Shown: positions 19,588 to 58,289 of the stretch, piece after piece
Layout: each line of letters starts with the position of its first letter
How positions within the stretch are numbered: position 1 is the first letter of the stretch
Virus record (IMG/VR): IMGVR_UViG_3300026382_000012
Coordinates: 1-64,000 of that record
DNA: 64,000 nt
Strand: one strand, 5' to 3'
Source: a virus
Notes under the pieces: model-generated
Told to the model about the DNA's origin: nothing
The model's database searches: none
The model's input: only the letters and a program-made list of their open reading frames with translations
Translations under genes and position numbers: made by a program

Positions 19588-20445
19588 ATGAATTACGAAT
19601 TGTTTTCCCAAATACTTAAAAAGAACATACAAAAATATGTTAAAGAAAATATAGGGAGCGATCGCGCTCCGTATTTCTATAACGAAACACCACAATATCA
19701 TGATGATAATACATTAGTATATTCCATTAAAAATTGCGATGCATATATACAATTAAGAATCAATAAACAATTACCCACAAAATACGACAGAACAGTATTA
19801 TATGAAGCTATAGAAAAGATAACTTACTTAATTTCTAGAATGCTATATGATAGATTTTTCTACGGTTATGAAATAGTTATTAAAAATCCATATTTTATAA
19901 CAGTTTATAATTATGCACATACTGCAATATTAAATATAAAATTAGATGGTAGAATTTATAAACTCAATGATGATGCTAATTTCTTAAATACATATTTAAC
20001 TGAAATAAAATCATTTTTTGATGTAAGTGCTAGATGTACTGCGGCCAGACATCTACTCAGAGAATATTTATACGAAGATACTGATTACATGTATTATATC
20101 GCGCCGATGGCATCAAATTTTTGTTGTATCACTTTCAATAGAAAAAATACTATACTTGATAATAAAATTAGCATAAGAAACATAATTGAAATAGTTATAC
20201 CCGAAATAATTAAAAATGCAAGTATTGAAATGGCATTCATTAATCAAGACATTTGTATACATATAAACATGGTAGGCAGAATAACAACTACAAAAATTAA
20301 ACATAATGCATTTGAAATCAATCTAGAAAATCTTAGAGAATTATTAATCTTACTGATTGAATACACTAAACGAACGTCAGATAGAGAAATAATAACTATT
20401 GAAAATGAAACGGATATAAATAAATTGAAAGTGCAATTGTTTTAA
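19588..20445 (+). CDS. Hypothetical protein (C-terminal motif family)
   Basis: Ends DINKLKVQLF. Confidence 0.7.
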   Translation: MNYELFSQILKKNIQKYVKENIGSDRAPYFYNETPQYHDDNTLVYSIKNCDAYIQLRINKQLPTKYDRTVLYEAIEKITYLISRMLYDRFFYGYEIVIKNPYFITVYNYAHTAILNIKLDGRIYKLNDDANFLNTYLTEIKSFFDVSARCTAARHLLREYLYEDTDYMYYIAPMASNFCCITFNRKNTILDNKISIRNIIEIVIPEIIKNASIEMAFINQDICIHINMVGRITTTKIKHNAFEINLENLRELLILLIEYTKRTSDREIITIENETDINKLKVQLF

Positions 20446-20472
20446 ACAAAAAGTTTACTGGGTAGTTTAAGA

Positions 20473-21162
20473 ATGCGTATAATTAAATACAGTGGTAGTA
20501 ATAAAGTAGAAATAAGAGCTGAAAGTTCTCCTGGTATAATATATCCGTTTCCGAAAGATTTAAAGAAGATTATAGATTTTATTGGGAAGATACAATTGTC
20601 TGAGTTTCATGTTGATAGTTTAGAACTATCAATAAATCCATTACGAATTATTATTTCAGGTACATTTCGAACAATAATTTTTAGTAAATTAGATACTTCT
20701 TTATCCTTAAATAACTCTATAAAAGAAATTATCATGTGGTTGTTAAATAATTTTAATACCTCACATATAAGAAAATTGGAAATAACAGAAACTGCAGATT
20801 CTGTTTTAATTACTTCTGGTAGTTTTACATATACATTGGTTACTAGTATTGCATTTCATAAATTAATGAATAAGCTATGTATTTATAAAGATTTGATTCT
20901 ATATAATCTTAATGACGAAGAAATGAACATTGTAAAAAATCAGTTTGATAAGTACACAAAAATAATATGCGAACTAAAATATCCTATCGTTGTGCATAAA
21001 GTGGATCAGGAAAATATAACTATAACTAAATACGCTAAACAACGAAAGACAATAAAGAATATACACGAATTAGACCTAATTCCTTTTATAATAGAAACGA
21101 ATATTCTAGATGATGAGTTAGAGAGATCTATATGCCAATTTATTAAGATGCAACTACTTTAA
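20473..21162 (+). CDS. Hypothetical protein (C-terminal motif family)
   Basis: Ends ICQFIKMQLL. Confidence 0.7.
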   Translation: MRIIKYSGSNKVEIRAESSPGIIYPFPKDLKKIIDFIGKIQLSEFHVDSLELSINPLRIIISGTFRTIIFSKLDTSLSLNNSIKEIIMWLLNNFNTSHIRKLEITETADSVLITSGSFTYTLVTSIAFHKLMNKLCIYKDLILYNLNDEEMNIVKNQFDKYTKIICELKYPIVVHKVDQENITITKYAKQRKTIKNIHELDLIPFIIETNILDDELERSICQFIKMQLL

Positions 21163-21173
21163 AGGAGGTTAGA

Positions 21174-22091
21174 ATGAAAATGTTCAATACAATAGAAGAG
21201 TTTTTTGAAGAATACTTTCCTGAATATGATGTGTCATATAACATTAATAAAATGTTTCTAACAAAAATGTATTATCCTTATTCTATTTATGTTAAATCTA
21301 AAGATGAAAGAAATTATTCTATTAGATTTGCTAATATATGCATTAAAATTGATCTAGATAGAGGCATTGATAAGGAGCAAGAGCAGCTAATTGATAACAT
21401 AAAACATGTATATGATGATGTGCTTGTTAATAATACGCGCCGTTTTATATCAGTAGATATAGGCAACCTCAGATTAATCACCTCAGTGATATTTGATTTT
21501 AAAACTAAACGATTTGAGTCAGTTATTTATGACATTTCCAATCTCGATACATTTTTTACCAATTCATTTCTGTATAAAGTATTAAAAAGAATTGAAGGGA
21601 GTAATAATCAATATGAGACTTTACAAGAGATTTATAATAAATATTTTGCCGAAAGACATAAATATATTGATAAAGTAATAGAGCATTTCTATATTACAAG
21701 ATGTATTAAAAAGGATACAAATGAACCAAAACCATATATAATAATTGAAAATATAACTTTCGATAATGTAATTAATTTTCAGAAATATTTGCGCTGGAAT
21801 AAAGTCACAACGAAACATTTTAAACAGCTTAAAAAATATTTTACATTCTATTTTATAAATAGAGTAGTTTCATATTTTAATATGATGGCTAGAAAATTTG
21901 ATTTGCCGGTTATCAAAATAAGTGAATTAAATACTAGCAATATATCAGGCGAAATTAACGATAGAGATTTAAAAGCATGTCTAAATATGCTAAAAATAAA
22001 CATTAACATAAGCAGAATAATTGAAAATAGAAATAAAAATAATAAAAATGTAATCGACGAAATAGAGAAATATATACCAATTGTATTGTAA
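21174..22091 (+). CDS. Hypothetical protein
   Basis: Long ORF after element/SD. Confidence 0.7.
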   Translation: MKMFNTIEEFFEEYFPEYDVSYNINKMFLTKMYYPYSIYVKSKDERNYSIRFANICIKIDLDRGIDKEQEQLIDNIKHVYDDVLVNNTRRFISVDIGNLRLITSVIFDFKTKRFESVIYDISNLDTFFTNSFLYKVLKRIEGSNNQYETLQEIYNKYFAERHKYIDKVIEHFYITRCIKKDTNEPKPYIIIENITFDNVINFQKYLRWNKVTTKHFKQLKKYFTFYFINRVVSYFNMMARKFDLPVIKISELNTSNISGEINDRDLKACLNMLKININISRIIENRNKNNKNVIDEIEKYIPIVL

Positions 22092-22113
22092 AACTACTTT
22101 AAAGGAGACGGAA

Positions 22114-22696: not shown

Positions 22697-23404
22697 ATGA
22701 AGCTAACTATAAAACTTGATATTAACGGTATACATATACATGGTGATATAGGATTAATGAAACAATTAAATAACGATTTATATAAATATGTTAATAGCAT
22801 TATAAATAATAAATACTCTTTCGGCACAATAGTAGAAATATATGATAGTACATTCAAAGTAAGTTATAAAAAGTTCTCGATATTTAGTGTATACAGAAAT
22901 GTAGAAGACTTTAGTAACAAAATAAATAGATATTTGTCTATACTAAATACACTAGCATATATTAATATTGTTAAAAATAACAGCAACATTGAAGATATTG
23001 AATTTGATCTGTTAGATAAAGTTGTTAGAATCAATAATAATAATGACGCTCAAATTCAAATAGAAGATTTAACAAAAGAAAGTATAATTATAAGATATTT
23101 TCATAATTTAATTTTAATTTATGAAGATAACAAATATGATTTGCATAAAATTACAGAATATATAAATGAGCTTTATTCATCTGTACATAAAAATATTTAT
23201 TCAAAATATTTAACCATAATCTCGGAACAAGAAAACGCAATATTTGAGATATTAACTCTTAATGTTGAAGATTTAACTTATAGAAAATATAGATTGGTCG
23301 ATAACATATACGATGCAGTTATACATGGTATTTTAGGTGTATTATTTAACGATAATAAAATATTAAAAGAATTAGCGAATTTGCATAAATTGAAACTATT
23401 TTAA
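22697..23404 (+). CDS. Hypothetical protein (C-terminal motif family)
   Basis: Ends LANLHKLKLF. Confidence 0.7.
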   Translation: MKLTIKLDINGIHIHGDIGLMKQLNNDLYKYVNSIINNKYSFGTIVEIYDSTFKVSYKKFSIFSVYRNVEDFSNKINRYLSILNTLAYINIVKNNSNIEDIEFDLLDKVVRINNNNDAQIQIEDLTKESIIIRYFHNLILIYEDNKYDLHKITEYINELYSSVHKNIYSKYLTIISEQENAIFEILTLNVEDLTYRKYRLVDNIYDAVIHGILGVLFNDNKILKELANLHKLKLF

Positions 23405-23420: not shown

Positions 23421-24143
23421 ATGAAGTGTTTGGAATGTAAAGGTGATTTAAAACTATACGGTGCCGCTGCTAGAAAATCACATAATAAATATTACTTAAC
23501 ATCCCTATGCTATATTTGTGAAAACTGCAATAAAATGAACATTTTTTCAACTAGACCAAAAATCATACCGAATTTAGATATTAACTTAATTTACATACCT
23601 TTTATGAAAGAGTTAGATCATATTAAAATATTGTTTCCTGCTAACAGAATTATTATACATGGTATTGATAAAAAAGATAAAGAGATTACTGTGCCTATGG
23701 CGTATGACACAAAAAATTTAGTCAATATTATCAATAACTTTAATCTTAATGATTTAGATTTGCAATATATCGACCCAGAATATAAATGTCTCAATTGTGG
23801 GTCAAGAGAACACAGAATTAATGGAATTAATATAAATATTTCTAAGAATTTTACAATTACACGGGCGATAATTAAATGTTCTAAATGTAAACAATCAAAA
23901 ACATATAATTTTTATGATTCACCTATTCAAATACCACATATAGATATTATTAAGCAGAAGTACGAAAAATATGTTTCAAAATTAGATAAATATTGTATTT
24001 ATTTATCAAATATGGGAAATGTAATATTATATGGACAAGATATAAATACAAGTTATAGACTGAGATATATCTTATACAAGTATAATAGAGATGAATACAA
24101 CAATATTTTATTGCAAATTTATAGGCGCATAAAACTACTTTAA
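23421..24143 (+). CDS. Internally duplicated zinc-ribbon protein
   Basis: KCLEC..CENC..IPNLD and KCLNC..CSKC..IPHID halves. Confidence 0.7.
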   Translation: MKCLECKGDLKLYGAAARKSHNKYYLTSLCYICENCNKMNIFSTRPKIIPNLDINLIYIPFMKELDHIKILFPANRIIIHGIDKKDKEITVPMAYDTKNLVNIINNFNLNDLDLQYIDPEYKCLNCGSREHRINGININISKNFTITRAIIKCSKCKQSKTYNFYDSPIQIPHIDIIKQKYEKYVSKLDKYCIYLSNMGNVILYGQDINTSYRLRYILYKYNRDEYNNILLQIYRRIKLL

Positions 24144-24153
24144 AGGAGGCACA

Positions 24154-25738: not shown

Positions 25739-25868
25739 CTACTTTATGCTCCTCCATTCCTACTTAAACTTATTAAAAATTAAGTAGGAATTTTGGAGCA
25801 CGGAGATTCATAAAGAACCTCATTACTACCCACTATCCCTTTAGATAGGGATTCGTGGGATACCTTTA
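25728..25868 (-). ncRNA. Predicted TnpB omegaRNA of element 1 (scaffold plus flank-derived guide)
   Basis: Nested hairpins TATCCCAC..TCCCT/AGGGA..GTGGGTA and GTGCTCC..ATTCCTACTTAA/TTAAGTAGGAAT..GGAGCAT, shared with the other two elements. Confidence 0.65.
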
Positions 25869-27240
25869 AAAGTAGGTTATATAATGAACTCTGAATATCA
25901 GACATAAATATTCTTATAGGTCTCGCTAACTTATCCAGCCAAATATTAAAAGGCAAACAATTAACTATATCCTTTCTGACTTTCTTAATGATGTTCAAAG
26001 CGCCGTTGCAATCGGCATTCCAGATTTTATTAAGTTTTAAATCTTTGAAAAGACCTCTTTTTATTCTCTTGCCGTTATAAGATTCTTTCTTTGATGGTTG
26101 TTCAGTTAAAGCTGAACATTTAGATGTATAAGATTCATCTACTTCCACAACTTTAATACCGAATTTCTCACATTTGTATTTTAATTGCTCAATTAACATT
26201 CTAAAAGGCAAATAAACAAAATTTTGATTTGTTCTATCACCCAAATTAATTTCTTGTTTACTTTCAATTGCAGATTTACCTATTATAACATGCTTAATAC
26301 CAAATAATAGAAATAAGGTAACTAATTTGGATGTAATTTGATGGAACATACTTTTAATTCTTCTTGCTCTATAACGTTCTAATTTACGCCTCAATATTTT
26401 ATTTTCTCTTGATTGTAACTCAGCTTTGATTTTATTATACCATTGATTAAACGACTTAAACTCTTTACCATTAATTATTAATGACTTAAATTCTGGATGA
26501 TTGGAAACAATAGTCATGAGATTATCTAGTCCTAAATCTATACCAGCTACATATTTATCGTTCTTTATATTAGATAATTTAGGAATGTGTATTTTATATA
26601 CTACCTGTATGTAATAGTCGTCTAATTTCTTAACAACTCTCACAGAAGTGATTTTTTCCTCAAAATATTTAGGTAATTTGATTTTAATATTGGATTTTTT
26701 TGAATTTAATTTTAGTTGTATTACTCTACCTTTAGCTGATTCTATAATTTTAAATACTAAACTGCTAAATTCAATAGAGCAATTATTGACTCTTTCTATT
26801 TTCTTTGGTATTGGTGGTTTTGGCGGTGATTTAAATTTTGTTGGGTCTTTCTTATATTCATGAATAGCGGCGAAATATGATTTATAATTATTTGCTATTT
26901 CTTTGATTAATGCTTGAAATAAAGCATTGCCTAAATATTCTTTAATATTCTTTAGTTGTATATACAATTGTTTGTTTATACTGTCTGTTAATAATTCAGT
27001 TTCATATTGTTTCTTGAGTGAGATTTTCTTACTATAATCGCCACGGTTATAAATTTTACCAGTAAATAGTAAATTAAGATTTTGCAATGTTATACCTATT
27101 TTGACAAAAAATTTAAAATTTCTATTGATTAATAAATAAAACATATTCTTTGCATGGACATATGTCTTACATAACTTCATAACTTTCTTCTTTCTATCAC
27201 CTCGAATTCTGATTTCCAGAATATGGTTGATTGTCTTCAC
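25780..27240 (-). CDS. tnpB: TnpB RNA-guided nuclease (IS607 type)
   Basis: GIDLG, LKYK, VDESYTS, NADCNGALNI. Confidence 0.92.
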   Translation of the reverse strand: MKTINHILEIRIRGDRKKKVMKLCKTYVHAKNMFYLLINRNFKFFVKIGITLQNLNLLFTGKIYNRGDYSKKISLKKQYETELLTDSINKQLYIQLKNIKEYLGNALFQALIKEIANNYKSYFAAIHEYKKDPTKFKSPPKPPIPKKIERVNNCSIEFSSLVFKIIESAKGRVIQLKLNSKKSNIKIKLPKYFEEKITSVRVVKKLDDYYIQVVYKIHIPKLSNIKNDKYVAGIDLGLDNLMTIVSNHPEFKSLIINGKEFKSFNQWYNKIKAELQSRENKILRRKLERYRARRIKSMFHQITSKLVTLFLLFGIKHVIIGKSAIESKQEINLGDRTNQNFVYLPFRMLIEQLKYKCEKFGIKVVEVDESYTSKCSALTEQPSKKESYNGKRIKRGLFKDLKLNKIWNADCNGALNIIKKVRKDIVNCLPFNIWLDKLARPIRIFMSDIQSSLYNLLLKVSHESLSKGIVGSNEVLYESPCSKIPT

Positions 27241-39110: not shown

Positions 39111-39144
39111 ATATAAACTCCTAAACTACTTTAAAGGAGACATA

Positions 39145-45377: not shown

Positions 45378-45877
45378 AGGAAATTTATTATGTGGAAAGA
45401 AGTAATAACGGCCGGCGTAATTTTGGATAAAAAATTGCAAAAATTTAAAGAACTACATAATAAACTATCCTACATAACAAAGTACGATATTGATGAATTA
45501 TATATATGCACTAAAAATTGTTCATTTATAGTTTCTAAATTTAAAAATTATTATTTTAGATTATTTATTCTTGACTCGGAAAATTTTGATTATGCAACAT
45601 TAGAACATTTATGGGATACTACAATGCATATTATCAGAAATAAGTTTAGAAATATAAAAAATGTGTACTATATCAATTTTAAGTATACAATAAATAATGT
45701 AGATATCGAAATTATGACTAAAAGAAATCACAATATAATTTACTTAAACAACATACATAACAAACATAGTAGTTTACATTTTATCTGTGATAAAAATGAT
45801 GAAATAATAAACCTCTTGTTTGCTAGTTTTTATAAATCTATCTAACGAAATTTAATTAATGCTAAGGAGGATTTATC

Positions 45878-46522: not shown

Positions 46523-47816
46523 GCAAATTTTTAAAACAAAGAAATCGCTATATCATAAAGTTGAAAAAATTATGTGTTCATTTAACATAATTAAAAATGA
46601 AATGTATAATCTTGTTAATTATTATTATGATAAAACAGGTGATATTAAACCTTTTATAACTGGTAGAAATTTATATTACATAATTACTGGAAATAAAACA
46701 CTACCATATCATGATCAAAACATACAACAAATATTAAACAATATACGAAATGCACAAATAATAAATCAAAAAGTAAAAACTGATATTATTAATATTGCAT
46801 GTGAAATAATTAGGCGCGAATTGAAATCTGTCGTAGGTAAATGGAAGAAAGGTCAAAAGGCTTCCTTGCCAAAACAAAAGAATTTTAATGATTTATTTAC
46901 GTATTCATTAGAAATACCAAAACGAATGATTAAGGATTTAAGAAAAAGAAAGAGAAAACCTGAAAATGCAATATTAATTACTATTCAAAAAGGCATTTAT
47001 ATTAAACTTAAAATTGATAAAAAATTTCCAAATATTAATTGCATAACAATTATCTGGAAAAGAGATATTGGTGTATACTTTAATATTATTTATGAAATAA
47101 ATCAAGAAGATATTGCATTAAATAAAGATAATTGGATATCAATTGATTTAGGAATTAATAACTTCGCATCAATAGTTTCAAATCATATAGATTCTATTAT
47201 TATCTCAGGCAAAAATTTGAAATCTTTTAATCAATGGTATAACAAATTATATGCTAAATTACAAACAAAAGGTAATGATAAATTGAGAAGAATATTAACT
47301 GATTATCGTAAACGAAGAATTAAGATGTTTTATCATAATACTGCAAATAAGATTATAGATATCTGTTTGGATAATAATATAGGTAAAATTATAATAGGCA
47401 ATCCAACTACATTGTTTCAGAAAAAATCTAAATATTCTAAGAAATCAAACCAAAATATTAGAATGGTAAATTTAGGAAAATTTATTAATATTTTAAGATA
47501 TAAATGCGAACAATTTGGTATAGAATTTCATATTGTATCTGAAAATTATACATCTGTTTTGTCATCAATTACCGAAAATATCACAACATTTACATATGAA
47601 TATCTAAAATCGATATATAGCAAACTCAAGAAAAATCGTATTAAAAGAGGTCTTTTTAAAGACCATAAAATTAATAAAGTTTTTAATGCAGATTTAAATG
47701 GCGCATTAAATATAGCTAAACAAATAATAACAAATTTACATAAATTAATTCAAGAACAATTAGATATATACATTGATAAAATTTCTAGGGCAAATAAATT
47801 AGTAATATATTTTTAA
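46500..47816 (+). CDS. tnpB: TnpB RNA-guided nuclease (IS607 type)
   Basis: SIDLG, LRYK, SENYTS, NADLNGALNI. Confidence 0.92.
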   Translation: MKKLRRVKQIFKTKKSLYHKVEKIMCSFNIIKNEMYNLVNYYYDKTGDIKPFITGRNLYYIITGNKTLPYHDQNIQQILNNIRNAQIINQKVKTDIINIACEIIRRELKSVVGKWKKGQKASLPKQKNFNDLFTYSLEIPKRMIKDLRKRKRKPENAILITIQKGIYIKLKIDKKFPNINCITIIWKRDIGVYFNIIYEINQEDIALNKDNWISIDLGINNFASIVSNHIDSIIISGKNLKSFNQWYNKLYAKLQTKGNDKLRRILTDYRKRRIKMFYHNTANKIIDICLDNNIGKIIIGNPTTLFQKKSKYSKKSNQNIRMVNLGKFINILRYKCEQFGIEFHIVSENYTSVLSSITENITTFTYEYLKSIYSKLKKNRIKRGLFKDHKINKVFNADLNGALNIAKQIITNLHKLIQEQLDIYIDKISRANKLVIYF

Positions 47817-47940
47817 CAAGTATTCCGTGAGTCCTTTAATAGGATAGCGGATAGTAATGCCTAGTATTGGTTAATTATAACCAATACTAGAGACACCTAG
47901 TTAGGAATTAAAGAACTAGGTACACTTATTGTTAATCACA
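47817..47940 (+). ncRNA. Predicted omegaRNA of element 2
   Basis: TATTCCGT..TCCT/AGGA..GCGGATA covaries with element 1; further hairpins CTAGTATTGGTTA/TAACCAATACTAG and ACCTAGTT/AACTAGGT. Confidence 0.6.
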
Positions 47941-48263
47941 ATGATCCTGATATATTAAAAATAGTTGAAGAAATAACTGAAAAGTACATAGAACCATACT
48001 TAATCAAACTTTTTAATTCAACAAATACAGAAAAATTTGGCTTTTTGGTTGATTCAAAGAATTATATTGATTATTATTTTATCGCGCGCGGTAAAATATT
48101 TGATGATTTCTACCGCGCTATTTATGAATTATCAAATATCAAAAACATCTTAAATATTAAATTTGAGGAGTTTAAAAATTTTCTGAAATTAATCCCTTTA
48201 ATCTAAAATTAATATATTGAATCAATTTTTCAATTGTAAAGCAACAAATTACGGGCATGGTGT

Positions 48264-48902
48264 ATGTTAAAGGAAGTAATCGCGGGCGATTTTATACTAG
48301 ACGAAATAAATAAAAAAGAACTACAAAATCTAGAATTTAAGATAACACAAATTACAGCAATATACGACATAAACAAATATCATATCAAATCTAACGACTG
48401 TAAATTTATTATTACAAAAATTGATTTAAATAGTATTAGACTATTTGTTCAGTCTGATGCTGACTATAAAATGATAAATCGGTTATGGAATACAACTGCT
48501 GGAATTATTAAAAAGTATTTTTGGGATATCTGCAATGTAGAAAGTCTCAAGATAGAGTATTTATTAAATGGTGCGCGTATTGAACTTTCATTTAAAAGTA
48601 AACTTAAACTTACAATAGATAATGTATACGAGAAATGCGCTGAGCCTCAAATTGTATGTAATAATGATGATGAATCAAAACAAATATGCAAAAAACTCCT
48701 TGATAAATTTCCACAAATCAATTTTATTATACAATCAGACAATGATGTATTTTACTTTTATTGGAAAAACGCCGGGTGGTTTTACATAGATAGAACTAGT
48801 TTATGCAATAATATAAGTGCTATATATTATAGCATGTTATCTGATATGCGCGCAGAAATTGTAGAAGAGGTAATAAACTATGCTTCAATCCTGCTATTAT
48901 AG
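48264..48902 (+). CDS. Hypothetical protein (C-terminal motif family)
   Basis: Paralog of 45390 (KEVI, RLF, LWxTT); ends VINYASILLL. Confidence 0.72.
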   Translation: MLKEVIAGDFILDEINKKELQNLEFKITQITAIYDINKYHIKSNDCKFIITKIDLNSIRLFVQSDADYKMINRLWNTTAGIIKKYFWDICNVESLKIEYLLNGARIELSFKSKLKLTIDNVYEKCAEPQIVCNNDDESKQICKKLLDKFPQINFIIQSDNDVFYFYWKNAGWFYIDRTSLCNNISAIYYSMLSDMRAEIVEEVINYASILLL

Positions 48903-48981: not shown

Positions 48982-49110
48982 ATGATCAAAATACCATCCA
49001 TCCTCCTAATCTCCTACTCAATAATAATCTAACATAATACTTTGAGTAGGATTTCGGAGGACAAAGTAACTACCGTCCCAGGCCCTATATCAGGTTCCTG
49101 GTTGCTTTTA
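48982..49110 (-). ncRNA. Predicted omegaRNA of element 3
   Basis: GTCCTCC..TCCTACTCAA/TTGAGTAGGA..GGAGGAT stem, homologous to element 1. Confidence 0.6.
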
Positions 49111-50485
49111 ATTCATTAACAATAAGTGAAATATTAGATTGTGTTAAAGTTGTTATATTAAACTTAATTGGATTTGCTAATTTAATTAATTTTAGTTTAT
49201 CAGAAAAATTTTTAAATGCGTTTTTATAAACGCATCTGATTATGTTAAATGCACCATTAATATCAGCATTCCATATTTTATTGATTTTAGGATCGAAATA
49301 AGAACCTCTGCCGTATTTACGATATATATGTTTTTCATATATTTTATTAGTAATTGCAGATTTAGCACTAGTGTAATACTCTTCAACTATAGTTACTTTA
49401 ATACCATATTTTTCACCTTTATATTTCAATTGATTTATTAAAACCGAAAATGGTATTGAATAAAAATTCTGGTTATTTCTACTGCCAAGATTAATATTTT
49501 GTTTAGCAGAAGGCAAATCACCTATTATTATTTCATTTATTCCGTATTGTTTACATATTTGAATAATTTTATTTGTAATCTGATGAAATACACTCTTAAT
49601 TCTTCTATTTCTATATGCAAATAATTTGCGATACATATAAATTAAGTCTTTCTTTTTATCTTTATCAGTTTCCAAATCTATTTTACTTCGTAATTTGGCT
49701 AAATGTTTATTTGCCCACTGATTGAAAGATTTAATTTCATTACCGGAAATTATAAAACTTTTTAAATTAGGATTATTACTTATTGCAGAAATCAAATTAC
49801 TAATACCTAAATCTATACCTAATTTGTAATTTCCAGTAACATTTTCAAATTCTGATAAATCAACTTCATAATAAATATCCAAATAAATATCAGTTAAAGA
49901 CATTCTAATACCAAATGTTTTTATATTATTTGGATCTATATACTTTAGTTTACTAAATTTGATATTAAAATGTAGATTTTTATCTTTTGTAGGTTTAATC
50001 AAATAAGTATTATCATCAATAAGTTTGAATTGCCTATGACAAAGTATATAATTTACATTGATTATTTTATCAAGCTTTTTAGGACGAGGTATACCAGGTT
50101 TATTTTCTATTTTACCATTTTTATACTTTTTAAGCAATGCAAAATAACTTTTATATTCTTTATCTACTTGTTTATTGGTAGCTTGGAAAAAATCACTGCC
50201 ATTATGTTTGTAAATATTTTGGATATTATTTATAATATTTATTAGTGATGAATCTAATTGAATTAACTGATCGATTAACTCTTTATCTCTACAATTTGCA
50301 ATCTTATCTCGTTGTTTTAAATCGAGATATTTAGATGTTAATTCAAAATATTTATTTATAAGTATGTAAAGTAAGTTTTTAAGATGTTGAAATCTTAATA
50401 AAGAAGAGCGGGCGATCTTTTTCTTATCACCCCGCAATCTAACAGATAAAACATACTTAACTTTCTTTTTCTTCAATTCCGACAT
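49085..50485 (-). CDS. tnpB: TnpB RNA-guided nuclease (IS607 type)
   Basis: GIDLG, LKYK, EEYYTS, NADINGAFNI. Confidence 0.92.
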   Translation of the reverse strand: MSELKKKKVKYVLSVRLRGDKKKIARSSLLRFQHLKNLLYILINKYFELTSKYLDLKQRDKIANCRDKELIDQLIQLDSSLINIINNIQNIYKHNGSDFFQATNKQVDKEYKSYFALLKKYKNGKIENKPGIPRPKKLDKIINVNYILCHRQFKLIDDNTYLIKPTKDKNLHFNIKFSKLKYIDPNNIKTFGIRMSLTDIYLDIYYEVDLSEFENVTGNYKLGIDLGISNLISAISNNPNLKSFIISGNEIKSFNQWANKHLAKLRSKIDLETDKDKKKDLIYMYRKLFAYRNRRIKSVFHQITNKIIQICKQYGINEIIIGDLPSAKQNINLGSRNNQNFYSIPFSVLINQLKYKGEKYGIKVTIVEEYYTSAKSAITNKIYEKHIYRKYGRGSYFDPKINKIWNADINGAFNIIRCVYKNAFKNFSDKLKLIKLANPIKFNITTLTQSNISLIVNELKATRNLI

Positions 50486-51095
50486 CTTTTAATACCTCAT
50501 CTTTTAATTTTTTAATTTTTCTATAATTTCGTGTACCGTAAATCTTCATAGCATAAAGATGTATTATACGTACTAATTCTTCTACAATATCTTGTACTCT
50601 GTCATATTTAATACTATCTTGATTTATAACTACCAATTCAATACCTAATATATCAAATAATGTTTTAAATAAATCAAAACCAATTCTAGCTAATCTGTCT
50701 TTATCAGCAATAACAATTCTTTTCGGTTTATAAATATAACATGTTTTTAGTAATTCTTTTAATCCTTTTCTATTAAAATTAACAGATGAACCAATATCTT
50801 TAATTATTTTAGATATTTGCCAACCATTAGCAATGCAATATTTTTCACAATATTCAATTTGATTTTCTAGATTATTCTTTTGTTTAGTTGTTGAAACTCT
50901 ACAATAAATAATTGTATCGTAATTTTCTGATATATCTTTCTTTATTTTACCTAATTTATATAGTGTTTTTAAATGTTCATCTGTATATCTTCTTTTGCCA
51001 CCAGGCGTACGCAATGGATTAAGAATATTATCATAACGACGCAAAGTTGAAATGCTTAGACCAGTTAATTTAGAAAATTCTTTTATATTATACAT
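50457..51095 (-). CDS. tnpA: IS607 TnpA serine recombinase
   Basis: HTH, RTPGGKRRY, YCRVST, DRLAR, KIYGTR. Confidence 0.93.
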   Translation of the reverse strand: MYNIKEFSKLTGLSISTLRRYDNILNPLRTPGGKRRYTDEHLKTLYKLGKIKKDISENYDTIIYCRVSTTKQKNNLENQIEYCEKYCIANGWQISKIIKDIGSSVNFNRKGLKELLKTCYIYKPKRIVIADKDRLARIGFDLFKTLFDILGIELVVINQDSIKYDRVQDIVEELVRIIHLYAMKIYGTRNYRKIKKLKDEVLKDVGIEEKES

Positions 51096-51689
51096 TTATT
51101 ACCTCCTATTTCACTATTCAAAATACTACTCATTATTATATCGTAATATAGATTATATAACTAATGAGTAGATTTAACACAATAAATACCATTATGAAAA
51201 TTCATTGCCGCTATTTATTGATCTATTAAATTTGCGCAGGGGTTTTGAGTATCAAACATTTGTAAATAACCTAGAAATACTTATAACTTATAAAATAAAC
51301 TTTAACGATATGGTTTTATATCTAGATGAAATTAATACATCAATTGATATTAATGGATCAACTCCGCGCAATATATTTTCGAATCTAGATTTTGAAAAGA
51401 TAAAAATAAGTAAAAATATAACTTGGATTAGATACAACAATACAAACGAAAATATTGATAAAGATTTGATAATGAAGATACTAAATGCTATTAGAACATT
51501 AAGTAAATCTACTGTTTTTTACATACTAACATTTAATAACATGTTACTATTCAATGAAGATGCTCTCGATTATTATGAGATAAAAGAACATATTAATACG
51601 CCTAATTTTCTTAACTACATAGCAAGTAATATAAATGACATCCAGATATTTGATGAAGATTTAGTTAACTTTCTAAACGTGAAGAGGCT

Positions 51690-52397
51690 ATGATGCATAT
51701 TGAATCAATAAGCTTGGATAATGCAGATAAACTATTACTAATTGCCGAAAGTAAGAAATATCTACTTTCAGCAGAGATAATAGAAAAATTAAAAAAGATA
51801 CGCAGAAAAATACATATTGATCTAAACATAATTGATAGAGATAAAAATAGTTCATATATGTATATTGAAAATAACAAAGAACTAATGGTTGTATATATGT
51901 TTAACGAAAATATCAAAGAAGAGTTATTTAACGAATTTGTGAATAAGAAACTTGATTTCGCTCTATTATTATTTGATGAGGATGATAAATATTCTGACTT
52001 TTTTAAATTTATTAGTTCTATTAAGAATTATGTTAGAATTATTGATTTTATTGATTCTTATTCTGATGGGTATAATGTTAATATTTATTTTGATAAATAT
52101 ATTCCTGTTGTGCTGTCTTCTAATAATTTAGAAAAATTTAGATTTTATCGAACCGCTCGCGGATTTTACTTTATAAAAGAACACCTTTCCGAATATGAAG
52201 AACTAGAAGAAATTTTTAAATCATTTAAATATACATATATCGTAATCGATAAAATAATTACGATATATGATAGAAATAACTTTATCATGTCCATAAATAT
52301 CTTATCTGAAGATTTTTACGAAGTCAAATGCCTATTATATAATGATATGCTTGACCCTTCGGAAGTCGAAAATTATGTAAGGTTCGAAAATGTCTAG
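51690..52397 (+). CDS. Hypothetical protein, module gene A copy 1 (C-terminal motif family)
   Basis: Distant paralog of 54401 and 56018; ends VENYVRFENV. Confidence 0.7.
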   Translation: MMHIESISLDNADKLLLIAESKKYLLSAEIIEKLKKIRRKIHIDLNIIDRDKNSSYMYIENNKELMVVYMFNENIKEELFNEFVNKKLDFALLLFDEDDKYSDFFKFISSIKNYVRIIDFIDSYSDGYNVNIYFDKYIPVVLSSNNLEKFRFYRTARGFYFIKEHLSEYEELEEIFKSFKYTYIVIDKIITIYDRNNFIMSINILSEDFYEVKCLLYNDMLDPSEVENYVRFENV

Positions 52398-53088
52398 TTC
52401 TAATAATTACTACCTCATTATAAACGAAAGCATTATGTACAATAAATTTACAGATACAATTATAAAAATAAATATAAACAGGCTTTTTAAACCAATACCT
52501 GCGTATAATGAATATAGAACATATATGAAAGTTTTTGAATTATCAGGAGATGAAAAATTATTTACGTTTGAAATCGATAACATTGCCATTTTGAAGATAT
52601 ATGTTAAAGAAAAAGATAATTTAGTTAATACCGTCAATAAATGGTTGAATAAAACTGAAATAAATAATTTATTTGAAATGTTTTGTAATATAAAAACAAA
52701 TGTTGAAGCGCATTATGATATTAACAATAATATTAAGACTATTAATATCAATAATCAGTTATATTTTGAACTTCCTTTTAATATAAAAATTAAGAAACTA
52801 GTCGAGCATTTACCAATATATGTCATCAACAAAAAGAATAATACCATTATAAGAAAAATACAGAATTTATTCTACGAATTAAGTCGAAACTCGCGCCTAA
52901 GACACATCAATAATAATTTTATATTACTATGCTATAAAGATAAGATATATTATATTTGGGGCGATACTATTATAGAATACACAGAACAAACCAAGCAAGA
53001 TATAATATATGATGTTTTATATAAAATTTTGAATCTGAAAATAGAAAAGAATGCATTTATTAATCTTATGAAATTAACTAGATTCTAA
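52390..53088 (+). CDS. Hypothetical protein, module gene B copy 1 (C-terminal motif family)
   Basis: Distant paralog of 55059 and 56692; ends FINLMKLTRF. Confidence 0.7.
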   Translation: MSSSNNYYLIINESIMYNKFTDTIIKININRLFKPIPAYNEYRTYMKVFELSGDEKLFTFEIDNIAILKIYVKEKDNLVNTVNKWLNKTEINNLFEMFCNIKTNVEAHYDINNNIKTININNQLYFELPFNIKIKKLVEHLPIYVINKKNNTIIRKIQNLFYELSRNSRLRHINNNFILLCYKDKIYYIWGDTIIEYTEQTKQDIIYDVLYKILNLKIEKNAFINLMKLTRF

Positions 53089-53104: not shown

Positions 53105-53689
53105 ATGATGTATACTTACCTAATAGCCACGCCATTGTATACGATAAATTACTATTCAGAAAATAAAAAGAAAGATCTAAAAGAAATCGAAGAAACATAT
53201 TATAAACTAGTTAAAAAGAGTATCGAATTTTATAAGAAAATTTATAACACAAATAGTGATTTAAAAATTGAAAATAGAAATGTGTCTTATCGTGAAAACT
53301 TTTGTTTAAATCTTAATGCATTATTAACATTAAGAAAATTAAACGGCGCGCGTATTGTAAGAGCTTTCTTTAGTACATCTTATACCTTATATGGAGTAAA
53401 AGTTAAATTATCAGATAAATATCTAGAAGAATTAATAAACGAAATCAGATACCTTATAAACATAATAAATAAAACATACAAACAATACAGAAAAAATATT
53501 TCAATTTCACATGTTGATATTATATATGTTTTTAAAGCAGAAAATGAAATCTATAAAAAATTGAGGTTAGAATTACTAAATAACCGCGCAATATCAAAAG
53601 AGATAACCAACTTAAATATTTCTGATAGGCAAGCAGTAGAAATAGCAATAAAGGAGCTGTTTAATAAGGTTCTACTTACAAAACTTTAA
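53105..53689 (+). CDS. Hypothetical protein (C-terminal motif family)
   Basis: Ends LFNKVLLTKL. Confidence 0.7.
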   Translation: MMYTYLIATPLYTINYYSENKKKDLKEIEETYYKLVKKSIEFYKKIYNTNSDLKIENRNVSYRENFCLNLNALLTLRKLNGARIVRAFFSTSYTLYGVKVKLSDKYLEELINEIRYLINIINKTYKQYRKNISISHVDIIYVFKAENEIYKKLRLELLNNRAISKEITNLNISDRQAVEIAIKELFNKVLLTKL

Positions 53690-53710: not shown

Positions 53711-54388
53711 ATGTTAAAATTTATTGAGAGTATATGGCTCTCAACAAAGTTATTCTTTAGCAAAGCAGATTGTTATTTTATCAATAACAAAAAAGGATAT
53801 ATTAAAGTTAAAACACGCCCGATACATTTTATATATAAAAATGAAAATTACAATTTTGCCATTATACATATTCCATTTGAAGAAATAAAGATACTATATA
53901 TCCCAGATAGAACTTTATTGCTAAATTTTAGTAACGAAACTGAGTTACATCATTGGATAAATACCGTTTTGCAATTAGTTGAAGATGAGATAATTTTGGA
54001 AGATCATTTTAATTCTTCTCTTACTATTGGGCATATAGAATATTGTAAAACTGCACCGATTGATGAGATATTAAGCAATTTTAAATTTGAAGAGCATGAA
54101 CTTAATAAAACTGACAATACTATTAATATTGTCGCGCACCATAATGAAAACTTAGACGATATAATAACATTTATAATTAATACTCTAAGAAACATATCAA
54201 ATAGTATCTCAATTATTAATGATATATATGTAATAATTGGTTATGGCCAGATAACAATCAAATACGGTAAAAGAAAATTAACAAAATTGATAGAAAAGAT
54301 TAAAGATACTGATATTTATATGTTGTTCATTAACGATATTAAGTTAATAGAATTAATTAAAAATCATAATCTATTAAAGAAGTTATAG
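53711..54388 (+). CDS. Hypothetical protein (C-terminal motif family)
   Basis: Ends IKNHNLLKKL. Confidence 0.7.
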   Translation: MLKFIESIWLSTKLFFSKADCYFINNKKGYIKVKTRPIHFIYKNENYNFAIIHIPFEEIKILYIPDRTLLLNFSNETELHHWINTVLQLVEDEIILEDHFNSSLTIGHIEYCKTAPIDEILSNFKFEEHELNKTDNTINIVAHHNENLDDIITFIINTLRNISNSISIINDIYVIIGYGQITIKYGKRKLTKLIEKIKDTDIYMLFINDIKLIELIKNHNLLKKL

Positions 54389-54400
54389 AAAGAAACTGTA

Positions 54401-55081
54401 ATGTGGGAAGCAGAAACCTTTTATACATACACAGTAGCTTATAATATTAATAAAAATGTAAACATTAAAAAAGAACATTTAATTAAATTTATAGAATTAG
54501 TAGAATATTTTTCGGAAACTATAAACTTATATATAAGAGCATTCTATAAAACTCTAGTAACAGTAAAATACGATGGTTTAGTTATTAAACTGATATTCGA
54601 TAAAAATATGACACAAAGAGAATATGATGAATTAATTGATAAATTAGATAAAATTACGCCTCAAGAATTAAGAAATTTCTTTCACAATCAAATTACAAAA
54701 AATGTAGTTGAATACATAGAAATATTAGATTACGAATCAATCAAAATAGTATTTAAAAACTTAACTACTTATATTTTAAGTATTGATGACATAAATAACT
54801 TTAAAGAGGGATATCGTCCGGAAAAATCCGTATTTTTGTTAAATAAGAGAAATCCGAATAATACTGAAATAATCAAAATAGTAGATAGGTTATCAAAATT
54901 ATTTAATCATTATTTCTTAGTAATCGATAATATATTACTTATATATAACGATAGTTTAGATATATTAAAGATAATTACCCCTATTGACAAAATAAAAATT
55001 AATGATATAATTAGTCAGTTGACTTTTGAAAAGTTTACTCTAGAGGAACTGAATAATTATGAAAAACTCCGTGCGCTTTAA
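54401..55081 (+). CDS. Hypothetical protein, module gene A copy 2
   Basis: Close paralog of 56018; ends LNNYEKLRAL. Confidence 0.75.
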   Translation: MWEAETFYTYTVAYNINKNVNIKKEHLIKFIELVEYFSETINLYIRAFYKTLVTVKYDGLVIKLIFDKNMTQREYDELIDKLDKITPQELRNFFHNQITKNVVEYIEILDYESIKIVFKNLTTYILSIDDINNFKEGYRPEKSVFLLNKRNPNNTEIIKIVDRLSKLFNHYFLVIDNILLIYNDSLDILKIITPIDKIKINDIISQLTFEKFTLEELNNYEKLRAL

Positions 55082-55808
55082 ACAAACATTATATATAATT
55101 TTAGATAAAGAAAATCTATTAATATACGATAAAGATAAGATACTAAAAATCAATATAAAAGAAATCGAAATCGATGAAATATCTTATTTTAAAAAACACA
55201 TCCTGAAATTATCATACAATAATAAAATATATTACGAATTTGAGTTTAGTAATTATAGAAATAATAGACAAAAAAAATTATCAATAGAGTATTGTACGAA
55301 TAATGATAATATTGTAGATGTTGTTAATAAAATAATGAACAAAAAATCCATAATACCATTTATGTATTATATAGCAAATGCAAAAATAGATAACTTAAAT
55401 GTTATTATATCTGAAGACAATGATAATATAATCGAAATTAATGGAATCACTTTACGTGCACCGCGCATTAAAACATCATATGATATAAGTTATTTTGCGT
55501 CGTCAACGTACATTCGTTATTTATGTATAAATACATATTCTGATAAAATACACAATAAATTGGGAGAGATATCGAAAAAAATAATAGATAAAATAAGTAA
55601 TTTAAACATTCATAGTCCAATATTTACAATAGATTTTGATTATATAGTTTTTGAGAGCAGAATATTCTTCGTATTAAATAATTATATACGAGAAATAAAG
55701 GATGAATTAGATATACAAGAAATAATATTAATGTTTATGAAGAAAATGTTTAACTTAAAAATAAATGATGAAGAGCATACATCATTACTTAAACTAATGA
55801 TGCAATAA
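55059..55808 (+). CDS. Hypothetical protein, module gene B copy 2
   Basis: Close paralog of 56692; ends HTSLLKLMMQ. Confidence 0.75.
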   Translation: MKNSVRFKQTLYIILDKENLLIYDKDKILKINIKEIEIDEISYFKKHILKLSYNNKIYYEFEFSNYRNNRQKKLSIEYCTNNDNIVDVVNKIMNKKSIIPFMYYIANAKIDNLNVIISEDNDNIIEINGITLRAPRIKTSYDISYFASSTYIRYLCINTYSDKIHNKLGEISKKIIDKISNLNIHSPIFTIDFDYIVFESRIFFVLNNYIREIKDELDIQEIILMFMKKMFNLKINDEEHTSLLKLMMQ

Positions 55809-55830
55809 ACTACTTTAAAGGAGGTAAACG

Positions 55831-56006: not shown

Positions 56007-56017
56007 GAGAAGTTGCA

Positions 56018-56689
56018 ATGTGGAAAGTAGAAGCTTTTCATTCATATATAGTGGCTTACGACATTAATGAAAATATAAATGTAAAAAGAGAACATTTAAC
56101 TAAATTTATAGAATTAGTAGAACATTTCTCAGGAACTATAAATTTATATATAAGATTATTCTACAAATTTTTAGTGTTGATAAAATGTGACGACTCAATT
56201 ATTAAAATAATGTTTGATACTAGTATAACGCAAAATGAATACAATGAATTAATCGATAAATTAGATAAAATCACGCACCGACTAAAAGAAATAGGAAATT
56301 TCTTCCATAATCCAGTCACAAAAAATATGGTCGGATATATAGAGATATTAGACTATAGATCAATCAAAATAGTATTTAAAAATTCAACTACTTATATCCT
56401 AAATATTGATGATATAAATAACTTTAAGGAAAAAGTAATACATAAAAAATCTATATTATTACTGAATAAGAATAATCCAAATAATGTTAAAATAATTAAA
56501 ACAATAGATAAATTATCGAAATTATTTAATCATTACTTCTTAGTAATCGATAATATGTTACTTATATATAACAATAGTCTAGATGCGTTAATAACAGTTA
56601 TCTCTATTGATAAAGTAGAGATTGACGATGTGATTAAACAATTAACTTTTGGATTATTTACCTCAAAGAACCTCAAAGGAGTTAAGTAG
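56018..56689 (+). CDS. Hypothetical protein, module gene A copy 3 (tail frameshifted)
   Basis: Paralog of 54401; ACCTCAAAG duplication alters the C-terminus. Confidence 0.75.
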   Translation: MWKVEAFHSYIVAYDINENINVKREHLTKFIELVEHFSGTINLYIRLFYKFLVLIKCDDSIIKIMFDTSITQNEYNELIDKLDKITHRLKEIGNFFHNPVTKNMVGYIEILDYRSIKIVFKNSTTYILNIDDINNFKEKVIHKKSILLLNKNNPNNVKIIKTIDKLSKLFNHYFLVIDNMLLIYNNSLDALITVISIDKVEIDDVIKQLTFGLFTSKNLKGVK

Positions 56690-56691
56690 CT

Positions 56692-57453
56692 ATGAAAACC
56701 GCACGCCTATACACAATATTAGATAAGGAAAATCTACTAGTAAATGATAGTAACGAAATACTAAAAATTAATATAGAAGAAATAGTTGATGAAATGGGTT
56801 ATTTCAAGAAACATATTTTAAAATCATCATATAATAATAAAATATGTTACGAATTTAAATTTAACGAGTATGGAAATAGTAGACCGAAGAAATTATCAAT
56901 AAAATATTATACAAATAATGACAATATTGTAGAAGTTGTCAATGAAATAATGAACGAAAAATCTATAGTAGCATTTATATATTACATAGTTAATGCAAAA
57001 ATAGACAAACTAAATGTTACTATATCTGAAGATAATGGAGTCATAATTAAAACCAACGAAATAACTTTACACGCGCCGCATATCAAAGCATTATGCAATA
57101 CAAATCATTCTATTTTGTCATTTGCATTGCCATCAACATTTATAGCAAACACACATATTTGTAGTCTATGTATGAATACAAATTTTAGTAAGGCATATAA
57201 TAAATCAGACAAAATAACAAGAAAAATAACGGATAAAATAAACAGTTTAAATATACACAAACTAACATTTACAATAAGCTTTGACTATATAGTTTTTGAA
57301 GATAAAATATTCTTCGTATTACATGACTATATACGAGAAATAAAAAATGACGCGGATATACAGGAAATAGCATTGTTATATATAAAGAAAATGCTTAACT
57401 TAAAAATAACTGATGAGGAATACGCCACATTGTTTAAATTATTGATGTTGTAA
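56692..57453 (+). CDS. Hypothetical protein, module gene B copy 3
   Basis: Ends YATLFKLLML. Confidence 0.75.
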   Translation: MKTARLYTILDKENLLVNDSNEILKINIEEIVDEMGYFKKHILKSSYNNKICYEFKFNEYGNSRPKKLSIKYYTNNDNIVEVVNEIMNEKSIVAFIYYIVNAKIDKLNVTISEDNGVIIKTNEITLHAPHIKALCNTNHSILSFALPSTFIANTHICSLCMNTNFSKAYNKSDKITRKITDKINSLNIHKLTFTISFDYIVFEDKIFFVLHDYIREIKNDADIQEIALLYIKKMLNLKITDEEYATLFKLLML

Positions 57454-57479
57454 ACTACTTTAAAGGAGGTTAGAATAAA

Positions 57480-58289
57480 GTGTTTAGTGCAATCGTACAT
57501 AAATTACCTTACTTTCCTCACGCTAAATTATACAGTTGTGTAATAACTGAAGATAATAAGCTTATTTATAGCGGACTTATATATTCGCCACATGAAATAT
57601 TAAAAAACATATCCAATAAAATATTCAAAGATGTTCTTGAATATCTAGTAACATCTGGATATATAATTGATTGGGATAGTACTATTATTAAATTTGATCC
57701 TTTGCGAGAAGATATCTTTATTGACATGTCTAGATTATCAATACTTGGTTTTAGTAGAATTAAAAATATGACCATTTCTACTAAACTGGAAGTATACCAA
57801 AAAGCGATACCTGACATATCTGATGTTTTAAAAATCGCTAGAGGACTTTCTTATGTATCATTTGCATCATTGGAGGATATTTTAATATACATATCACAAG
57901 GCAATTCTAATTACATAAATATAGAAATAAGCAATACTGCTAGTACTATTGAAACTAAAAATTCGCGCGAATATTTTTCACAATTAAAATTCGAAAAAAT
58001 TGAAACAGATAAGTTTTCATGGATAAAATATAACGATAGTACTATTAAAAAAGAATTGATATTGAAAGTAATAAGTATAATAAATACATTGATAAGAGCC
58101 GATGTAAAACCAAATATATTAACAATAAGTGATTTATTAGTAACATCCGGCGGTTATGTATTTAATAAATACGAACTGGAAGAACGGATAGGATCATCAG
58201 ATATGTTTAATTATATAGCCAGTAAGATAGATCATATAGAAGTTTTCGACGACGAATTAATCAACTTTATGAATATAAAGAAATACTAA
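57480..58289 (+). CDS. Hypothetical protein (C-terminal motif family)
   Basis: Ends LINFMNIKKY. Confidence 0.72.
   Translation: MFSAIVHKLPYFPHAKLYSCVITEDNKLIYSGLIYSPHEILKNISNKIFKDVLEYLVTSGYIIDWDSTIIKFDPLREDIFIDMSRLSILGFSRIKNMTISTKLEVYQKAIPDISDVLKIARGLSYVSFASLEDILIYISQGNSNYINIEISNTASTIETKNSREYFSQLKFEKIETDKFSWIKYNDSTIKKELILKVISIINTLIRADVKPNILTISDLLVTSGGYVFNKYELEERIGSSDMFNYIASKIDHIEVFDDELINFMNIKKY

Follow-up and report, generated by a model that had tools for sequence, protein, structure and literature searches.

A C-terminal motif common to variable orphan proteins in a phage genome fragment: a possible docking tag

What could hold the last few residues of about 20 orphan proteins constant while the rest of their sequences changed? 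The question is raised by the window analyzed here (the whole stretch of 64,000 nt), which is the first 64 kb of the 85,766-bp virus record IMGVR_UViG_3300026382_000012 and has a G+C content of 25%. Two arrays of accessory genes on its plus strand, at 19.6 to 24.1 kb and 39.1 to 58.3 kb, contain open reading frames (ORFs) whose products end in a short motif, here called the tag, with Asn at position -8 from the C terminus and hydrophobic residues at -4 and -1. The favored explanation, with a probability of roughly one half, is that the motif is a constant docking or address tag on about 20 variable orphan proteins (~240 aa) belonging to at least 15 sequence families. The record encodes a contractile tail sheath, a T4-type prohead protease, an Mre11-like exonuclease, and an ATP-dependent ligase, and relatives of its capsid protein carry Pfam domain PF07068 (gp23 family). 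The phage is probably a jumbo phage of at least 240 kb with a T4-type capsid protein; CheckV places the completeness of the record at ~33% and that of 122-kb related records at ~51%. Virion genes lie on the minus strand, and the replication and metabolic genes, together with the ORFs under study, lie on the plus strand; the larger array adjoins the head gene block.

The C-terminal motif

ORFs of at least 50 aa were called on the 85.8-kb contig, with the longest nonoverlapping ones retained (n = 93), and are named below by their first coordinate. The pattern N...[LIVMFYW]..[LIVMFYW]$ ends 15 of these 93 ORFs, compared with 1.28 expected from its frequency inside proteins (binomial P = 3e-12), and a stricter pattern with Lys, Arg, or Asn at -5 ends 10, compared with 0.30 expected (P = 9e-13). 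The 14 ORFs listed in the initial annotation all exist at the given starts and end as quoted, and the enrichment of Asn and hydrophobic residues that it had reported outlasts composition-preserving shuffling, since 5000 shuffles of the last 30 residues of each ORF gave a mean of 1.34 matches and a maximum of 7. Fourteen of the 15 matches are on the plus strand, within 19588-58289, in the two accessory arrays; the 15th (69273-70583, minus strand) is at chance level. Asn is thus found at exactly -8 in 14 cases, and variants with 1 to 5 residues after the motif also exist. A 13-residue position-specific scoring matrix (PSSM) was derived from a single representative of each sequence family, with the scored family excluded. 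At the exact C terminus, this leave-one-out PSSM gave p <= 2e-3 for 10 of 12 representatives and 7e-3 for 39100, and 51690 failed. A score of 9 was reached by 1 of 24,133 internal windows, which indicates that the motif almost never occurs inside proteins. The PSSM also backs extended variants in 10057 (+2 residues), 13586 (+3), 43935 (+5), 48045 (+1), and 40407 (+1). The tails of 55059 and 56692, with Ser or Thr at -8, align homologously with the canonical tail of 52390, and 20473, with Gln at -8, looks by eye to have retained Lys at -5 as well as both hydrophobic residues (-4 and -1), though its PSSM score is low. Weak scores make the tag doubtful in 7941, 23421, and 39928, so that ~20 is a safer count than the "about 25" proposed originally. 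The motif is absent from the ligase, ClpP, polymerase, and minus-strand virion genes, and no description of such a tag was found in the literature.

The consensus is [DE](-12)-[DE](-11)-h(-10)-x-N(-8)-h/aromatic(-7)-x-[KR](-5)-h(-4)-x-x-h(-1)-COOH, where h is a hydrophobic residue. The acidic patch described earlier in front of the motif is borne out by enrichment of acidic residues at -12 (8/15, p = 3e-4) and -11 (7/15, p = 2e-3), and Lys or Arg is enriched at -5 (8/15, p = 2e-4) and also at -2. Scanned position by position from the C terminus, hydropathy carries a signal from about -12 to -1 only. The initial annotation had called the tag an amphipathic helix, a description that does not hold: the hydrophobic moment at 100 degrees is ordinary (mean, 42nd percentile of internal windows) and peaks at 120 degrees, because the hydrophobic residues fall every three residues, at -10, -7, -4, and -1. 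A membrane-targeting amphipathic helix of the MinD/FtsA type was rejected on account of this low 100-degree moment and of the conserved Asn among the hydrophobic positions. The tag is closer to plug-like, groove-inserting motifs than to a classical amphipathic alpha-helix. The tagged proteins are soluble, are without transmembrane segments, and have isoelectric points of 4.8 to 9.6.

The tag is conserved at the protein level. Positions at which different families carry the same residue use an identical codon 122 times, compared with 156 expected from codon usage, and the Asn at -8 is encoded by 10 AAT and 4 AAC codons, as in the genome at large. This synonymous variation, from which protein-level selection had been proposed, supports that conclusion, and the codon comparison between families shows no trace of a recently shared 3' DNA cassette. 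At -1, CTN codons encode Leu somewhat more often than expected (8/11, compared with 36% genome-wide; p = 0.014). The ACTACTTTAAAGGAGG element, found 20 times against 0.75 expected, occurs on the plus strand only (for example, at 8322-8337, 24134-24149, and 57454-57469), where it precedes replication and metabolic genes and some of the tail ORFs, and it never precedes the minus-strand virion genes. Its ACTTTAA beside a strong Shine-Dalgarno sequence resembles the "epsilon" translational enhancer leader of T7 gene 10, and IMG/VR contigs carry the 16-mer once at most. Only three tagged ORFs (20473, 22697, and 23421) stop inside the element, the Asn at -8 lies 24 nt upstream of the stop, and the tag is kept in 42331, 48264, and 57480, which have no close plus-strand gene downstream. 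The motif is therefore not explained by the overlapping element or the Shine-Dalgarno sequence, a point that the initial annotation had raised against itself.

In 19588, and in this gene only, the GAT ATA AAT AAA codons of the tag spell TATAAATA at 20415-20422, the T4 late-promoter consensus. The octamer is underrepresented in the window, with 30 occurrences compared with 46 expected.

Relationships among the protein bodies and with other phages

The bodies had been described as mostly unrelated. It stands that no sequence relationship is detectable beyond small subfamilies; unrelatedness itself is not established, given the narrow size range, the tandem layout, and the duplicates described below. 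All-against-all BLASTP returned small groups only (41491/42331, 51205/57480, 54401/56018, 55059/56692, 45390/48264, and 7941/13586). Comparison of 29 groups with hhalign joined 52390 to 55059/56692 (E = 0.002 over 147 columns) and gave a weak link between 43935 and 44724 (E = 0.018), and the shift of motif-motif relative to motif-control comparisons was weak (p = 0.02). Iterative hidden Markov models (HMMs) seeded on four subfamilies were negative or marginal for further body homology, as was the correlation of hydropathy profiles between bodies. No body relationship was found with leave-one-out HMMs on residues -82 to -13, which exclude the tail, or with family HMMs searched against tail-keeping decoys. 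The N-terminal 60 aa of the tagged ORFs have nothing in common, residues -48 to -14 carry no common signal (combined Fisher p = 0.19), and global alignment against reversed sequences gave p = 0.02, yet this resembles the controls (p = 0.09). In outside databases, the 20 tail ORFs of the arrays have no match above the cutoffs in Pfam and PHROGs, the family profiles A3 and A4 match no PDB sequence, the ESM Atlas gave no usable match, and 57480 and 53105 have no homolog among 5.8 billion proteins. Two AlphaFold2 models from paralog alignments reached predicted local distance difference test scores (pLDDT) of 41 and 35, too poor for fold comparison.

An origin from a single family is plausible because of the uniform size, the tandem layout on one strand, and the recent duplicates. 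The family representatives (n = 15) are 194 to 285 aa long with a standard deviation of 24, a uniformity that 100,000 random draws from the remaining ORFs never matched (P < 1e-5). The regions 54401-55808 and 56018-57453 are tandem duplicates of a two-gene cassette with 66% and 65% amino acid identity and ratios of nonsynonymous to synonymous substitution (dN/dS) of 0.25 and 0.19. The tag of 54401, in the first copy, falls within the 23 nt that this gene shares with the beginning of 55059, which is read in a different frame. The dN/dS values of 0.19 to 0.30 in three paralog pairs indicate that the bodies are constrained and that these are working genes. At such rates, we infer, paralogs would pass beyond recognition within the time that the capsid protein took to fall to 53% identity. 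Given the sizes, the layout, and the duplicates, bodies that are truly unrelated are no more likely than an old, hyperdiverged gene family.

A search of 1.84 billion representatives with the 52390-family profile returned one outside protein. A full-length cluster mate from another run (P0016) aligns with 52390 from end to end at 37% identity. Its last residue falls at the same position, and its end, FSNFIKLTKL, retains N(-8), K(-5), L(-4), T, and a hydrophobic final residue. Motif positions and end point also persist between 52390 and 56692, which are 28% identical. The search for the motif in related genomes that had been proposed gave a divided answer, since the P0016 homolog keeps the tag and a 122-kb relative (G001; capsid protein 33% identical) does not have it. 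The same procedure found neither this motif nor any other C-terminal motif in G001, which therefore also serves as a control on the motif-finding method, and the A4 profile found nothing in G001 or in a further genome, G002. In a 10,950-bp relative (L003; capsid protein 53% identical), the homolog of 58374-59195 is followed 166 bp later by the homolog of the exonuclease gene 37863-39110; these flanking homologs (L003:4242-6506) are parted by a GC-rich hairpin, and the gene order is otherwise colinear. Because the flanking genes are adjacent there, the plus-strand block at 39.1 to 58.3 kb is, as judged from gene order, either specific to this lineage or lost in that of L003. Closer relatives exist, with capsid proteins 64 to 89% identical, and an identical capsid protein is also found on a separate 129,858-bp contig. 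The phage DNA is present in sequencing runs labeled hydrothermal vent metagenome, and an ~95%-identical strain occurs in run X3, the contigs of which do not span the tails. The phage collection holds no DNA or protein match to this phage, the sole match of the tail sheath in it being Yersinia phage phiR1-37 (24%), and scans of IMG/VR and JGI data returned distant capsid relatives only.

Docking peptide, structural relic, or targeting signal

About five positions held in C-terminal register while the rest changed form the pattern that is expected of a shared interaction peptide. If the tag is a docking peptide, a single partner, or reader, would recognize the last 10 to 13 residues, usually with a free C terminus, and the bodies would supply differing activities or targets. 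Such a set would most likely have arisen by tandem duplication of one ancestral ~240-aa gene and divergence beyond recognition, with the tag positions alone remaining constant. We infer from the sequences both that the tag binds a partner and which partner this may be. Should a single reader exist, it is nearly an even bet that it is a host hub or a protein from the unseen two-thirds of the genome; an AAA+ protease (the phage HslU-like protein with ClpP, or host Clp), with the tag as a degron or adaptor tether, is a tentative choice, and a prohead or scaffold reader, as for the T4 capsid-targeting sequence (CTS), is an outside candidate. The nearest known parallels are the T4 CTS, encapsulin cargo-loading peptides, ClpX-type signals and tethers, and viral multigene families with a constant C-terminal hub-binding module, and the tag differs from each of them in at least one feature, as compared below.

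Several observations weigh against the docking reading. The recent duplicate 56018 has lost the tag, its stop codon preceding the next ATG, and is still under purifying selection. When members of a subfamily are compared, the tail (13 residues, of which 4 to 7 are identical) is overall no better conserved than the body. There is no Gly/Pro-rich linker before the tag, Gly plus Pro making up 3.1% of residues -30 to -14 compared with 5.0% genome-wide, so the tag could be a secondary-structure element packed at the end of a fold that all these proteins share. Variants with 1 to 5 extra residues mean that a free carboxylate does not always adjoin the motif, the candidate readers are proposed by association only, and the absence of the tag from G001 documents its conservation within a narrow lineage only.

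The main rival reading, which is possible, is that these proteins are diverged paralogs of one fold in which the tag is a structural relic, the most constrained last helix or strand (a folding nucleus, for example), with no external partner. The uniform sizes and the tandem arrays with recent duplicates fit this, as do the missing linker, the tolerance of extra residues, and the low-confidence AlphaFold2 secondary structure, which places the tag directly after another helix and a short loop. However, structural elements normally covary with their packing partners, and here no likeness elsewhere in the proteins can be picked up any longer by HMM, profile-profile, or hydropathy comparison. Twelve or more families nevertheless retain N(-8) together with hydrophobic residues at -10, -4, and -1, and the exact stop position is kept in at least 14 genes and in P0016.

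It is doubtful that unrelated bodies each gained the tag as substrate adaptors, or as degron-tagged early proteins, for the HslU-like/ClpP or MoxR-type machines of the phage. The plus strand also carries the genes for an HslU-like ATPase and a bona fide ClpP, each preceded by a small zinc-ribbon-like paralog (7941 and 13586, respectively), and tag-like ends extended by 2 or 3 residues lie directly before the MoxR-like (10057) and ClpP (13586) genes; the end of 7941-8321, before the HslU-like gene, is a weak variant that the PSSM does not support. Since these machines are encoded and tag-like small ORFs adjoin them, an AAA+ protease is the leading candidate reader by association. No HslV was found in the 85.8 kb, and the 508-aa protein encoded after the MoxR-like ATPase, which the initial annotation had labeled VWA, matches only HNH-endonuclease, tape-measure, and unknown PHROGs. 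C-terminal AAA+ protease signals and tethers include the ssrA tag, the MuA-type ClpX signal, and the XB tail of SspB, and known classes end in LAA-COOH, RRKKAI-COOH, and LRVVK-COOH. The tag resembles them in its position at a free C terminus, its hydrophobic last residue, and its nearby basic residues, in that one machine would serve many proteins, and in the presence of an unfoldase and a peptidase in the same genome; unlike them, it is longer, has another sequence with Asn at -8, and is extended in some variants, and it is identical to none of the classes. The failure to find homology between the bodies also fits separate gains of the tag. However, the link between tag and machine consists of their presence in the same genome, independent acquisition by 15 genes would leave the narrow size range unexplained, and no shared 3' cassette is visible in the DNA.

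A more specific and slightly more doubtful proposal casts the tag as the plug in a targeted-proteolysis system encoded by the phage, in which ~20 bodies would seize host proteins, such as defense proteins, while the peptide docks on HslU-like/ClpP, or in which the tagged proteins would themselves be timed substrates. The poxvirus ankyrin/PRANC proteins (F-box-like) have recognizable repeat bodies, a C-terminal domain of ~40 to 50 aa, and a known host partner. The arrays are like these families in being tandemly amplified and fast diverging, with variable bodies and a constant C-terminal module, and unlike them in that the bodies are unrecognizable and the constant part spans only 10 to 13 residues. 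If targeted proteolysis is the function, the arrays would be a bacterial-virus counterpart of the F-box/PRANC adaptor families of eukaryotic viruses. 

Loading into the prohead for coinjection, in which the tag would play at the C terminus the part of the T4 CTS or of an encapsulin cargo-loading peptide, is unlikely. It would suit a phage with a gp23-type capsid protein and a T4-type prohead protease, the larger array of which abuts the head gene block. The T-even internal proteins (IPI, IPII, IPIII, and Alt) have only a targeting peptide in common (PMC3012670). As in that system, a T4-type phage here carries diverse accessory proteins that share only a terminal peptide of ~10 residues and are encoded in variable (hyperplastic) genome regions; unlike the tag, the T4 CTS stands at the N terminus, where the prohead protease cleaves it off at (L/I)-x-E, and no consistent cleavage site of this h-x-E type precedes the tag. 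Encapsulin cargo is likewise loaded through dedicated peptides that dock on HK97-fold shells (PMC8346489). The likeness lies in a short C-terminal peptide on functionally diverse proteins with one HK97-fold shell partner. In encapsulin cargo, a flexible linker rich in Gly, Pro, and Ala leads up to the loading peptide, the consensus of which is rich in Gly, Ser, and Leu; here there is no linker, the motif is another one, and there is no shell-cargo operon. Moreover, the tag genes are opposite in strand to all virion genes, some of them share ACTACTTTAAAGGAGG with replication and metabolic genes, and their products are larger (~240 aa) than the T4 internal proteins and are not uniformly basic.

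It is very unlikely that the tag is a short oligomerization element with a buried Asn, comparable to the Asn at a positions of coiled coils, so that the hub would be the family itself in homo- or hetero-oligomers. The conserved Asn flanked by hydrophobic residues at -10, -7, -4, and -1 and the many coexpressed paralogs with one interface motif would suit it, but an element of 10 to 13 residues with a hydrophobic period of 3.0 is short and atypical for a coiled coil.

A sliding clamp was considered as the hub. Clamp-binding motifs include the bacterial QL[SD]LF motif, the PIP box, and the C-terminal tails of T4 gp43, gp33, and gp55. The tag is like them in being a short hydrophobic plug with a conserved amide, often C-terminal in these motifs, and its period near three resembles that of a 3-10 helix plug; unlike them, it has Asn rather than Gln, and its hydrophobic residues lie at +1, +4, and +7 from the Asn rather than at the +3, +6, and +7 of the PIP box. 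The canonical motif was rejected because the conserved Gln and the hydrophobic spacing are not found (Asn at -8; hydrophobic residues at -10, -7, -4, and -1). We know of no precedent for ~20 clamp binders in one phage, and neither a gp45-type clamp match nor a gp32 homolog was found in the 85.8-kb fragment, which is ~33% of the genome by CheckV.

Finally, a by-product of the gene-junction element or ribosome-binding site, AT-rich codon bias, or ORF calling, for which the three stops inside the element (ACTACTT-TAA-AGGAGG) and the CTN excess at Leu(-1) might speak, is extremely unlikely given an enrichment over internal windows and shuffles at P about 1e-12, codon identity below expectation, an Asn(-8) codon outside the element, tags with no gene downstream, and the absence of any C-terminal motif in G001 with the same ORF caller.

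Of the genes in this 86-kb fragment, about one in four is an orphan for whose study the tag is the only handle. If one reader recognizes it, a single partner would assign a pathway, whether proteolysis, encapsidation, or another hub, to ~20 proteins, and the tag would also serve as a targeting peptide transferable to other proteins and supply a criterion for recognizing functionally linked orphan genes in other large phages. The 19-kb array also bears on how accessory arrays evolve, as it appears to be lineage specific and its members have diverged beyond recognition with ~5 residues kept in C-terminal register.

Gene neighborhood

Tagged ORFs, variants, the gene-start element, and the candidate readers are listed in Table 1.

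Table 1. Positions of tagged and related ORFs, candidate readers, and the ACTACTTTAAAGGAGG element
Feature	Position	Strand	Remarks
ACTACTTTAAAGGAGG element, 20 copies (<=3 mismatches)	5687-57469	+	Directly before gene starts
HslU-like AAA+ ATPase, candidate reader	8338-9735	+	TIGR00390, 326 bits, below 362 cutoff
169-aa ORF, VNRIKLTIL + SK	10057-10566	+	Directly upstream of MoxR-like ATPase; PSSM 12.0 at offset 2
MoxR-like ATPase, candidate reader	10600-11802	+	
508-aa protein after MoxR-like ATPase, candidate reader	11851-13377	+	PHROG matches
139-aa zinc-ribbon-like ORF, VNIVKLILL + EEK	13586-14005	+	Upstream of ClpP; PSSM; paralog of 7941-8321
ClpP, candidate reader	14383-14961	+	TIGR00493, 336 bits, above cutoff
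Tail ORF, 285 aa, INKLKVQLF	19588-20445	+	Leave-one-out PSSM 7.1, p = 3e-4; no Pfam/PHROG match
Variant tail ORF, 229 aa, CQFIKMQLL (Q at -8)	20473-21162	+	Stop codon within ACTACTTTAAAGGAGG element
Tail ORF, 235 aa, ANLHKLKLF	22697-23404	+	PSSM 10.7; stop within one-mismatch copy of ACTACTTTAAAGGAGG
Weak variant, 240 aa, Cys-rich (several CxxC), IYRRIKLL	23421-24143	+	PSSM -0.7
Tail ORF, 253 aa, MNKLKLQIL	39145-39906	+	Start fixed by element at 39125-39140
Variant tail ORF, 250 aa, SNYINIVMKF (motif +1 residue)	40407-41159	+	PSSM
Tail ORF, 269 aa, INYLNISRL	41491-42300	+	Paralog of 42331; PSSM, BLAST
Tail ORF, 287 aa, INHAKLRML	42331-43194	+	PSSM 13.5
Variant, 259 aa, TNTARLKHL then QLKHF (motif +5)	43935-44714	+	PSSM 11.0 at offset 5
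Tail ORF, 217 aa, KNLITLEHF	44724-45377	+	PSSM
Open frame at IS607/TnpB right end, KNFLKLIPLI (motif +1)	47901-48206	+	First start, TTG 48045
Tail ORF, 212 aa, INYASILLL	48264-48902	+	Truncated, tail-less paralog at 45390-45845; PSSM, BLAST
Tail ORF, 162 aa, VNFLNVKRL	51205-51693	+	Matches C-terminal 160 aa of 57480; PSSM 11.1
Tail ORF by regular expression only, 235 aa, ENYVRFENV	51690-52397	+	Unsupported by leave-one-out PSSM
Tail ORF, 232 aa, INLMKLTRF	52390-53088	+	28% to 55059/56692; 37% to P0016
Tail ORF, 194 aa, FNKVLLTKL	53105-53689	+	PSSM 11.7
Tail ORF, 225 aa, KNHNLLKKL	53711-54388	+	PSSM
Tail ORF, 226 aa, NNYEKLRAL	54401-55081	+	Last 23 nt overlap 55059 start, other frame
Variant tail ORF, 249 aa, TSLLKLMMQ	55059-55808	+	Alignment to 52390 tail
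Duplicate of 54401, 67% identical, tail-less	56018-56689	+	Stop precedes next ATG; dN/dS 0.25
Variant tail ORF, 253 aa, ATLFKLLML	56692-57453	+	Alignment to 52390 tail
Tail ORF, 269 aa, INFMNIKKY; last gene of array	57480-58289	+	No plus-strand gene downstream

An IS607-like unit, consisting of a serine recombinase gene (45878-46522) and a TnpB gene (46500-47816), lies in the larger array between the truncated paralog 45390-45845 and the tag-ending frame 47901-48206. The latter is possibly the 3' remnant of a tail gene; its similarity to 48264 is not significant (E = 0.4). The site of the unit may mark an insertion or a deletion in a tag gene. One gene split by the unit into the halves 45390 and 48045 finds no support in sequence similarity (E = 1.9 and 0.4).

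Genes for a PTPS/QueD-like protein, a phosphoribosyltransferase, QueC, and a glutamine amidotransferase (4883-5680, 7380-7919, 16047-16811, and 17506-18237) suggest a 7-deazaguanine-type DNA modification pathway. Three diverged TnpB copies with 37 to 40% identity lie in or beside the accessory arrays, at 25780-27240 (minus strand), 46500-47816 (plus), and 49085-50485 (minus), and two of the three have a serine recombinase gene beside them (45878-46522 and 50457-51095, mutually 41% identical). In the 3' flank of the plus-strand copy, a 75-nt stretch (47637-47711) has a contig word depth of ~3900 in run X1 and ~990 in run X2, compared with ~10 for the phage. These depths indicate that the end of this TnpB element recurs in an organism that is very abundant in the vent samples, a possible clue to the host.

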